This document shows, piece by piece, positions 9,001 through 12,000 of a DNA stretch of 17,225 nucleotides (position 1 is the stretch's first letter; each line of letters opens with the position of its first letter). Origin of the DNA: a virus. The position numbers are program-made. Location: the UHGV virus genome UHGV-0130101; one strand, written 5' to 3'.

Positions 9001-12000
9001 CACAGGTCGCAAACTTCCTTGCTACCAAATAACCCGCGATGGCTTTGCGTTTCTTGCTATGGGTTTCACGGGTAAACGTGCTGCCCAGTTCAAAGAGGCA
9101 TACATCAATGCCTTTAACCAGATGGAGAAACAGCTTTCAAAGCCCTCTGTACCGAGCGACGTTGCACATAACGCCAGCGTTCTCTATTCCTACATTTCAT
9201 CAATTCATCAGGTCTGGTTGCAGCAGCTTTATCCCATGCTGGAAAAAGCTGAATCACCGCTGGCTGTAAGTCTGTATGACCGAATTAACGATGCGGCATT
9301 TCTTGCCCGTCTTATTCATTCGTCGCTGAACTCTTCAGAGGTAAGGGGGCGCAAATGATCCGGAATATTTTCAAACGGTTTACCAATCAGACTTTCCGTT
9401 GTCCTCGTCCGGGTCAGTGGTACACCACACCTGCAGGGCATGTTCTACGTGTTAGCCTGGTGGACCGTGAATGTCAGAAGGTGATTTGTGAACCGCTGGG
9501 CCGTAATTACCGCATCAGTATGCCGCTTATAGCCTTTCGCTCCGGAAAAAACATGAAGCATCTCGGAGGTGCTGCATGAGTATGGAGCTGATGGTTAAAG
9601 CGATGAAAATTCGAGTGGGAAATCCATTGCGAAAACTGGTTCTGATTAAGCTGGCTGATAATGCCAGCGATCAGGGTGAGTGCTGGCCCAGCTATCAGCA
9701 TATCGCTGATCAGTGCGAGATTAGCAAACGTTCTGTGATGAATCATATTGCGGCCCTCTGTGAGTCCGGGCTGGTAAAAAAAGTCACCCGGAAAGGTGAA
9801 AAAGGTAACTCAAGTAATATCTATCTCCTTCATCTGGATGGTGCAGGAGATTCACTAGGGGGTAGTGCAAATAATTCACTATCTGGTGCAGCAAATTCAC
9901 CAGGTAGTGCAGGAGTTGCACCAGGGGGTAGTGCAGGAGATTCACCCAGAACCAGTCACTCTTTTGAACCAGTCAAAGAACCAGTCAATGAACCAATAGC
10001 TGTTGGTGAATCTGCTGATGAGTCTGTGCGAGTTCGTTCAAACCGACCGGAATACTCTCCGGAGTTTGAGCAGGCATGGCTGGCATATCCCAAACGTGCT
10101 GGTGGCAATTCAAAATCTGCAGCCTTCAAAGCCTGGAAAGCCCGTTTGAATGAGGGGGTAAACCCCGAAACCATGCTGGAAGGTGTGAAACGCTACGCGG
10201 GCTGGGTATCTGCGATGGGTAACAGCGGCACACAATTTGTGAAACAGGCTGTCACGTTCTTTGGTCCGGATCGTCATTTCGAAGAATCCTGGGAAGTTCC
10301 TGCGGTATCTGCAGCCAGACGCGAGGACCCGTACTTCAAAGCCAGTTACGACAACGTGGACTACAGCCAGATCCCGGCAGGATTCAGGGGGTGATCATGA
10401 GTCTTTTGAATGAAGTTCAGAAATTCATTGAAGCCCATCCGGGGTGTACTTCCGGAGACATTGCGGATGCTTTTGCAGGTTACTCACGACAGCGCGTTCT
10501 GCAGTCAGCAAGCAAGTTACGTCAGAGTGGGCGTGTGGCTCACCGTTGTGAAGGAGATACACGCAGACATTTCCCGCGCCTGACTGAAAGAGCGCAGGAG
10601 CCGGAACCACAACCAGTTCGTGAAACCAGACCTGTGCGCAATTTCTATGTCGGCACTAACGATCCTCGGGTGATTTTGTGCCTGACCCGCCAGGCTGAAG
10701 AGCTGGAGTCCAGGGGTTTATACCGTCGTGCTGCAACGGTGTGGATGGCGGCATTCCGAGAAAGCCACTCCCAGCCAGAACGAAACAATTTTCTGGCGCG
10801 TCGTGAGCAGTGCTTACGGAAAAGCAGCAAGCGAGCTGTATCGGGTGATGAGTGGTATCTGTCAGGGAATTACGTGGGGGCTTAATGAGTAATAAATATT
10901 GCCAGGAGCTGGTGGAACTGCGGAACAAACCAGCCCATGAACTGAAGGAAGTGGGTGATCAGTGGTGCACGCCGGACAACATTTTCTGGGGAATTAACAC
11001 CCTGTTTGGCCCGTTTGTTCTGGATCTGTTCACTGACGGTGATAACGCCAAATGTGCCGCGTATTACACGGCGGAAGACAACGCGCTGGCGCATGACTGG
11101 TCAGAACGCCTTGCGGGGCTTAAAGGTGCTGCCTTTGGTAATCCTCCATACAGCCGCGCCAGTCAGCATGAGGGGCAATACATCACCGGCATGCGTTACA
11201 TCATGAAACATGCCAGTGCCATGCGTGATAAGGGCGGGCGCTATGTTTTCCTGATCAAAGCTGCCACCAGCGAAGTGTGGTGGCCGGAAGATGCAGATCA
11301 TATTGCTTTTATTCGCGGGCGTATTGGTTTTGAACTGCCTGTCTGGTTTATCCCGAAAGACGAGAAGCAGGTACCGACAGGAGCTTTTTTCGCTGGTGCT
11401 ATTGCTGTTTTTGACAAGACCTGGAAGGGACCGGCAATCAGCTACATCGGGCGCGATGAACTTGAGGCATGTGGTGAGGCGTTTCTGGCGCAGGTTCGCC
11501 AGCAGGCGGAAAAACTGGTCAGGGAGATGGCGGCATGACGACGTTAACTCAATGCCAGCAGCAGGTGCTGGATATGCTGATTTCTTATCAGAAAGAACGT
11601 GGCTTCCCGCCAACCAATCAGGAGGTGGCAACCATGCTGGGATACCGTTCAGTGAATGCAGCGGTGGAGCATCTTCGCGCACTGGAGAAAAAAGGCGTCA
11701 TCACGATAAAGCGTGGCGTGGCCCGGGGGATAACGCTTCATACCGCGGTGAAGGACGACGACAGCGAGGCGGTCGGGATTATCCGCGCACTGCTTGCCGG
11801 GGAGGAAAACGCAAGGCTGCGTGCAACCCACTGGTTACATGAAAGGGACCTGAAAGTATGAAGCTGATCCTGCCTTTTCCGCCCAGCGTGAACACGTACT
11901 GGCGACACCCCAACAAAGGGGCGTTTGCTGGTAAGAGCCTGATAAGCTCGGCGGGGCGAAAATTCCAGAGCGCGGCGTGCGCAGCAATAGTTGAGCAGTT

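Follow-up and report, generated by a model that had tools for sequence, protein, structure and literature searches.

A lambdoid phage gene next to rusA encodes a LexA-type winged helix-turn-helix domain followed by a conserved helical hairpin, without the self-cleaving peptidase domain of LexA

The stretch analyzed here is 17,225 nucleotides of the virus genome UHGV-0130101 (hereafter the window), and it corresponds to the early region and nin region of a lambdoid phage of the mEp460/SfV type, with 98% identity to mEp460 over 78% of its length. On the plus strand at 11535-11861, the window carries a gene of 108 codons with an ATG start, supported by the open reading frame (ORF) call, by Pfam and by the phrog_362 family. 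This gene encodes the DNA-binding half of LexA without the self-cleaving half. It is the counterpart of mEp460 gp46 and SfV orf42, and we refer to its product as the LexA-like protein.

The Pfam family PF01726 (LexA_DNA_bind) matched residues 1-65 of the protein across the whole model (1-65 of 65, E=2.9e-19), with a score of 69 bits against a cut-off of 23.7. Among solved structures searched with HMMER, the top match was the N-terminal domain (NTD) of E. coli LexA, 1LEA (E=6e-16), and full-length LexA was also among the best. BLASTP against E. coli LexA returned 43% identity over residues 1-90 (E=1e-21); over residues 1-70, 35 of the 70 positions (50%) are identical, and the alignment ends at LexA residue 86. 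A Pfam profile search of the 108 residues for Peptidase_S24 (PF00717) found no match, even at E<=1, and because the chain ends at residue 108, equivalents of LexA Ser119 and Lys156 are impossible. The protein scored 70.6 bits with the NCBIfam LexA equivalog TIGR00498, under the curated cut-off of 110.95. Compared with the LexA repressors as defined by TIGR00498 and MEROPS S24, it possesses the winged helix-turn-helix (wHTH) and lacks the Ser/Lys dyad of the S24 family, the cleavage site, and a sufficient score over the whole protein. Assignment as a component of a defense system was also considered and dropped, as the PADLOC match was weak (E=3.6e-4) and extended only to the level of the wHTH.

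The structure was modeled with AlphaFold2 (AF2) from an alignment of 22 sequences, giving a mean predicted local distance difference test (pLDDT) value of 84. This model was used in place of one made from the single sequence, which was all-helical with a pLDDT of 58 and was set aside. The alignment-based model and Foldseek place a wHTH domain at residues 1-68 (11535-11738, plus strand), comprising helices at 6-22, 28-35 and 40-52 and strands at 56-58 and 66-68. The first Foldseek match was the E. coli LexA-DNA complex 3JSO, which superimposed with a root-mean-square deviation of 1.0 Å over 67-68 residues at approximately 51% identity. The first-pass annotation, made from the sequence by eye, had read the product as the LexA N-terminal wHTH lacking the S24 Ser/Lys domain. 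The first part is borne out by the agreement of the Pfam match, the 1LEA match, the AF2 model and the 3JSO overlay, and the second by the lack of a PF00717 match in a chain that stops at residue 108.

Alignment with LexA places the recognition helix at residues 40-52 (V40 N41 A42 A43 V44 E45 H46 L47 and onward; 11652-11690, plus strand), with S39 just ahead of it. The residues through which LexA contacts DNA are Ser39, Asn41, Ala42, Glu44 and Glu45 (PMC3091678). Four of these five are identical in the LexA-like protein (S39, N41, A42 and E45), and the glutamate at position 44 is replaced by valine. The comparison with the LexA NTD by alignment and structure prediction, which had been put forward as a check, thus came out in favor of a LexA-type wHTH. 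In the alignment of the 22-member family, which reaches down to 38% identity, no change is seen at S39, R64, G65 or I66 and almost none at N41 and G61. R38 and K53 do not vary when LexA is compared with the closer relatives. The net charge of residues 1-70 is the same in the LexA-like protein as in LexA. The conservation of DNA-reading and wing residues across the family indicates that DNA binding is under selection.

The first-pass annotation had the protein ending directly after the wHTH, and this we did not find. Past a low-confidence linker at residues 71-74, AF2 and the alignments define a C-terminal helical hairpin at residues 75-103 (helices 75-88 and 93-103; 11757-11843, plus strand), for which the AF2 pLDDT is about 89-91. 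Within the hairpin, L86, L87, A93, A97 and L101 are invariant or nearly invariant in the family alignments down to 38% identity, and the protein contains the conserved hairpin motif …IIRALLxxxxxAxxxAxxWL…. The LexA-like protein is a wHTH joined to a conserved hairpin and not a bare domain. Judging from the model, the hairpin is a putative dimerization element that may take over the dimerization role of the lost C-terminal domain (CTD) of LexA.

Both HMMER and BLASTP aligned Ala88-Gly89 of the protein (11796-11801, plus strand) with the Ala84-Gly85 cleavage site of LexA. The earlier statement that there is no Ala-Gly cleavage site was therefore wrong as to the dipeptide, which exists and is aligned to the LexA site, and right in that no credible cleavage site is present, since relatives differ at this position. 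Close relatives have ANE or VGE in place of the dipeptide, and distant ones have ER, TR, DD, AC, AE or AD. Because of this non-conservation, a functional cleavage site at A88-G89, for example one cleaved in trans, is not credible. AF2 predicts the segment as helix; the region of the cleavage site in LexA is a strand. A88-G89 is probably a vestige of a full-length LexA ancestor. A vestigial-looking dipeptide at this position is what might be expected if the gene were a decaying, functionless remnant of a captured lexA. That reading is hardly tenable, given that frame and length are kept from 100% down to 38% identity, together with invariant DNA-contact and tail residues, and that 2223 of 5426 E. 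coli genomes have an intact copy and the gene is always translationally coupled.

The LexA-like protein and E. coli LexA (1LEA, 3JSO) share the same wHTH fold and the identical residues S39, N41, A42, E45, R64, G65 and I66, and their similarity extends through the linker to the A-G-E of the cleavage site. The phage protein differs in having no S24 peptidase/dimerization domain, in carrying a hairpin of approximately 30 residues where LexA has its CTD, and in the exchange of E44 for valine. Furthermore, LexA is encoded by an autoregulated host gene, whereas the phage protein is the product of an early lytic operon. The LexA(1-84) cleavage fragment is another example of the NTD without the CTD. 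It retains weak residual operator binding, a natural analogue of how the phage protein might act, is cleared by ClpXP via its new C-terminus, and dimerizes on DNA only. In contrast, the phage protein runs into a folded tail, so on the basis of the model it should escape the ClpXP route and may dimerize off DNA.

We tentatively propose, at somewhat less than an even chance, that the LexA-like protein is a RecA-insensitive repressor that would act early in lytic growth on SOS-box-like sites, including those of the host and the box at 16131-16150 of the window. By origin it would be a LexA paralogue cut down to its wHTH and fused to a helical hairpin instead of the S24 domain. With no catalytic Ser/Lys pair there should be no self-cleavage, and activated RecA should consequently be unable to switch the protein off. 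The protein would dimerize via the hairpin and bind CTGT-type SOS boxes, since S39, N41, A42, E45 and the wing are kept, and would thereby serve as an uncleavable stand-in for LexA once the host LexA is destroyed. In the host it would act on SOS genes; beyond these, it would reach genes of co-resident elements that are under LexA control, as well as the box of the phage itself, located where a late-region methyltransferase gene begins (16131-16150). For diverged relatives whose operon starts with an SOS-box promoter, this activity would amount to negative feedback on that operon. The first-pass annotation had suggested occupancy of SOS boxes, lock-down of genes during induction, and competition with LexA, and from the sequence these are plausible. 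A more ambitious form of the proposal is that a prophage-borne, RecA-proof LexA mimic re-closes SOS boxes after LexA destruction and so shortens or reshapes the SOS response during prophage induction. We regard this as doubtful. If it held, the genes affected would include those for TisB and other SOS toxins, for polymerases that cause mutations, and for antirepressors of competing prophages that are under LexA control. The gene would then belong with rusA to a conserved SOS-handling cassette. In other lineages, where an SOS-box promoter drives it, this cassette would also take in a DinI or RecA_C-like gene, and the LexA-like protein would work there as a feedback pulse generator.

The time at which the protein is made would suit a repressor of early lytic growth. 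Examination of the window showed that the gene lies between a Dam-type N6-adenine methyltransferase gene upstream (10852-11538, plus strand; PF05869, E=4.7e-45) and the rusA Holliday-junction resolvase gene downstream (11858-12247, plus strand; PF05866, E=9.6e-15), and that a 4-base ATGA stop/start overlap is present at both junctions. The translationally coupled block between the methyltransferase gene and rusA, noted previously, is thus upheld. No promoter was predicted directly upstream of the LexA-like gene in the window. Gene order, the ATGA overlaps and the missing promoter together lead us to infer that the gene is co-transcribed with rusA, in the nin-type region beyond the replication genes, and that its product is delayed-early, made after induction or infection and not in the lysogen. 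The phage also has a cI-type repressor, encoded at 6650-7324 on the minus strand, which carries an S24 peptidase domain (PF00717, E=1.5e-26), so induction of the phage is independent of the LexA-like gene.

The association with rusA extends far beyond the window. In 77 of 77 evaluable close loci, rusA lies directly 3' of the LexA-like gene with the same ATGA overlap, and the upstream neighbor in 78 related loci is the Dam gene in 58 and PerC in 20. An exhaustive HMMER search recovered diverged full-length relatives at 38-53% identity, and in 9 of the 11 such lineages examined rusA is found within one or two small genes of the LexA-like gene. Diverged lineages that keep the pairing are those of mEp390 gp43, P0126, P0132, P0123, P0139, P0164, P0218 and P0248. 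Likewise, rusA is directly downstream in six species-representative genomes of Enterobacteriaceae (Shigella, Citrobacter, Kosakonia and Enterobacter). Two lineages, L254 and Klebsiella phage L163, are missing rusA beside the gene, and the latter has the order dinI, one ORF, LexA-like gene, small ORF, DUF968. The common order is a DNA methyltransferase gene (PF05869, PF00145 or PF02086), the LexA-like gene, rusA, a KilA-N/ANT or DUF968 gene, and then Q. Where loci have both genes, identity is 41-67% for the LexA-like protein and 76-91% for RusA, so the former is the faster to diverge.

A near-universal pairing with overlapping codons, maintained from 100% to about 38% identity whatever the upstream gene, is what would be predicted if the LexA-like protein bound DNA in order to assist RusA or recombination-dependent replication, perhaps by targeting or modulating junction resolution, and were not mainly a transcription factor. 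We consider this improbable. Both L254 and Klebsiella phage L163 carry the gene without rusA, the order of nin-region genes is conserved for positional reasons, and the strongest selection on the protein falls on residues that read major-groove bases. Other lambdoid phages have RusA without the LexA-like gene, and RusA is a homodimer with no known partner.

The window was scanned for SOS boxes with a weight matrix based on 22 E. coli sites, the scores of which are indicative only. The sole site scoring at least 10 bits was TACTGTAAAAATAAACAGTG at 16131-16150, a perfect CTGT-N8-ACAG with a score of 22.7 bits, which is within the range of the training sites. This sequence fits the published consensus taCTGtatatatataCAGta as quoted in PMC7556043. 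This site, which the first-pass annotation had named, is a strong SOS box and the only one in the window. The box falls within codons 3-9 of a late-region gene for an N6/N4 DNA methyltransferase (16123-17175, plus strand; PF01555, E=2.2e-42). It was seen in nearly all of 80 loci marked by this methyltransferase, in a few of which the start region of the gene was not located, and three copies had a single substitution. A diverged copy at L253:6739-6758 has an intact core and changed flanks. A consensus scan found no recognizable sigma-70 promoter beside the box of the PF01555 methyltransferase gene. LexA at 16131-16150 might act as a roadblock, or might act on a promoter not recognized by the scan. 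Occurrences of CTGT..ACAG at other spacings in the window were not above chance. An inverted CTGT...ACAG pair with 14-bp spacing is present at 15651-15672, just past a terminator at 15623-15642; it holds the near-repeat CTGTAAAC / CAGTAAAC and is intergenic, upstream of a small ORF.

At least one strong SOS box was found in 48 of 80 close loci, spread over four different modules. About half of the gene carriers have no SOS box within 10 kb, and no palindrome was found within the invariant LexA-like/rusA unit. Taken together, these two results make it likely that any specific target is in trans. In about 32 of 80 related loci, a strong box lies inside the coding sequence of the cI-type S24 repressor, in the part for the linker between the HTH and the peptidase. 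These boxes (TACTGTTTTTACATACAGTA or ...ATATACAGTA; 25-27 bits) are exemplified by L068:5546-5565 and, in mEp460 gp38, by 3281-3300 of L001 (mEp460). The cI allele of the window has no internal SOS box. In 11 related loci, rusA is separated from an alternative KilA-N allele by 150 bp, and this spacer contains the strong box TACTGTATTTATGAACAGTG (L054:10765-10784), which suggests that a KilA-N/antirepressor-type gene directly after the LexA-like/rusA pair may be controlled by LexA.

In four of the diverged lineages, the operon that includes the LexA-like gene begins with a strong SOS box, and this box overlaps promoter-like -35 and -10 sequences. The boxes are at L253:3561 (26.8 bits; operon to 4357), L250:3560 (20.5 bits; operon to 4408), L254:513 (27.2 bits; operon to 1518, first gene DinI) and L255:3242 and 3258 (26.3 and 17.9 bits; operon to 4405, first gene RecA_C-like). 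Reading from the SOS-box promoter, these operons have dinI or a RecA_C-like gene (two lineages), a conserved ORF of approximately 75-82 amino acids, the LexA-like gene, in places a small ORF, then rusA or DUF968, and Q. These arrangements show members of the family repeatedly wired into the LexA/RecA circuit of the host. No Pfam family matches the ORF of 75-82 amino acids that all four lineages have upstream of the LexA-like gene. In L250, an opposite-strand toxin/immunity-like pair (RNase A-like PF18431 and CdiI_2-like; L250:1863-3232) is inserted immediately ahead of the SOS-box promoter.

The wiring into SOS raises the question of the direction in which the protein would act. DinI and gp7 of the Bacillus tectivirus GIL01 are likewise small phage-borne proteins that retune the LexA/RecA circuit, but they contact the RecA or LexA protein, do not bind DNA, and are unrelated in sequence to the LexA-like protein. 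Given that such proteins tune LexA/RecA, with DinI-like genes beside some homologues, and that the conserved contact residues would permit competition at SOS boxes, the LexA-like protein could be a LexA antagonist, competing at boxes or mixing with LexA on DNA without repressing, and so boosting or prolonging SOS and favoring induction. This is very improbable. Repression is the normal outcome when a protein occupies an operator overlapping a promoter, the LexA-like product is made after induction is already under way, and the protein lacks the LexA CTD, with nothing pointing to contact with it.

Several results weigh against a repressor of SOS boxes. Among control loci chosen by the presence of YfdQ, 25 of 54 with the LexA-like gene and 3 of 7 without it had a box scoring 20 bits or more, and the idea that the gene travels with SOS boxes was rejected for lack of association in this set. 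Co-occurrence in the methyltransferase-marked loci was near-perfect but unusable, because these loci represent a single lineage and linkage confounds the comparison; the box is kept in three methyltransferase-marked loci without the LexA-like gene. The recognition helix provides a second group of objections. Position 44 is valine here and is never glutamate anywhere in the short family. Positions 42-45 vary by lineage, reading AAVE here, TIAG or TITG in Citrobacter (65-67% identity), and AAVA, AVLL or TVFI elsewhere, and N41 is replaced by tyrosine in one lineage. The most diverged recognition helices occur in three of the four lineages with SOS-box promoters. Such variation would not be expected of true LexA orthologues, which are tied to a fixed regulon, and it looks more like drifting specificity. 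In addition, the isolated LexA NTD binds DNA weakly, which makes the proposal wholly dependent on the putative dimerization by the tail. A full-text literature search, which included the exact box sequences, found no study of the enterobacterial LexA-like family. Finally, the sole characterized precedent, gp6 of GIL01, is an activator at a non-LexA site (PMC6182141).

The GIL01 protein is the basis for the principal alternative. A LexA homologue in truncated form, gp6 recognizes a palindrome of its own, distinct from the LexA site, and activates the late promoter P3 (PMC6182141). By analogy, the LexA-like protein may be a phage-specific transcription factor whose specificity has drifted from the SOS box and which represses or activates at an operator of its own. 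The differences in the recognition helix between lineages and the loss of E44 would be in accord with this, as would the faster divergence relative to RusA noted above, which is expected for specificity-determining regulators. Lys38 is critical in gp6, and position 38 of the LexA-like protein is an arginine. Both proteins are truncated LexA homologues of temperate phages. They differ in that the gp6 model shows only a short C-terminal extension, which forms a wing, whereas the protein studied here adds the conserved helical hairpin. The latter also keeps most of the LexA contacts of its Gram-negative host and is encoded in a lambdoid nin region beside rusA. We found a single match, with two mismatches, to the gp6 palindrome (GaCACAn nTGTGaC) in the window, located inside a coding region; chance alone would give 0.71 matches, so the gp6-type motif is not present beyond chance. 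No candidate operator travels with the gene, as rusA is the sole invariant neighbor, the pair contains no palindrome, and the flanking modules vary. Helix 3 remains LexA-like in this lineage at S39, N41, A42, A43, E45, H46 and L47, and the late genes of this phage are already served by the Q antiterminator. On balance we consider a gp6-like factor possible though somewhat unlikely, and the RecA-insensitive repressor of SOS-box-like sites remains the reading we favor.

The gene is widely distributed. The match to phrog_362 is full-length (residues 1-108 against 1-106 of the 106-position profile, E=3.8e-59), and the LexA-like protein is a member of that family, which includes mEp460 gp46, SfV orf42 and the SfII, cdtI and Stx2c homologues, with no difference from them. 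Copies at 96-100% identity were found in approximately 50 phage records, among them mEp460, SfV, SfII, SfIV, cdtI, the Stx2c and Stx2a converting phages and 1720a-02. The gene was present in 2233 of 5426 complete E. coli genomes (about 41%), with up to four copies in each. A genome-wide scan, for which the search patterns were narrow, turned up full-length relatives in Enterobacteriaceae alone. Many of the tail-less partial matches in the same scan came from metagenome-assembled genomes of Planctomycetota/Phycisphaerae.

The gene is already annotated. The Prokaryotic Genome Annotation Pipeline (PGAP) names it "LexA family transcriptional regulator/protein," and the phrog_362 family carries the predicted label "transcriptional repressor." Deposited names run from "LexA DNA binding domain protein" to the incorrect "SOS-response repressor and protease LexA," and the GenBank labels that make the 108-residue protein a LexA "protease" or one of the "RecA-mediated autopeptidases" look like annotation errors. 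The adjoining Dam-type methyltransferase is called "phosphoadenosine phosphosulfate reductase" in RefSeq phage records (L001, which is NC_019716, and others), an apparent annotation error as well. As matters stand, this is a very common, already annotated gene with a characterized conceptual precedent in GIL01 gp6, and it does not constitute a new kind of system. New here are the conserved hairpin, the invariant rusA pairing, the non-conserved Ala-Gly that is probably vestigial, the SOS-box operons with DinI and RecA_C in diverged relatives, and the negative result for co-occurrence with SOS boxes.

If the LexA-like protein does bind SOS boxes, nearly half of the sequenced E. coli strains would have a second, uncleavable LexA-type regulator that is on during prophage induction. 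The carriers include Stx2c, Stx2a, cdt and Shigella serotype-converting phages. Possible effects would then extend to SOS-dependent mutagenesis, persistence, the release of toxins and colicins, and competition between co-resident prophages, and experiments with SOS reporters in lysogens would be confounded.

Stand-alone LexA-domain phage proteins proved to be common in a viral structure library. Five proteins (P0130, P0131, P0148, P0155 and P0156) contain LexA_DNA_bind twice in tandem within a single chain and lack an S24 domain, and these could be single-chain "dimers" of the LexA NTD. Elsewhere in the window, a 383-codon Rha/Ash ORF at 8207-9358 contains a hairpin resembling an intrinsic terminator at 8621-8638, on its own strand and within its first 140 codons. 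The Pfam domains of this ORF begin at residue 117, so its true start may be further downstream, and the hairpin at 8621-8638 may serve as a terminator of the tR1 type that precedes the nin-type genes.

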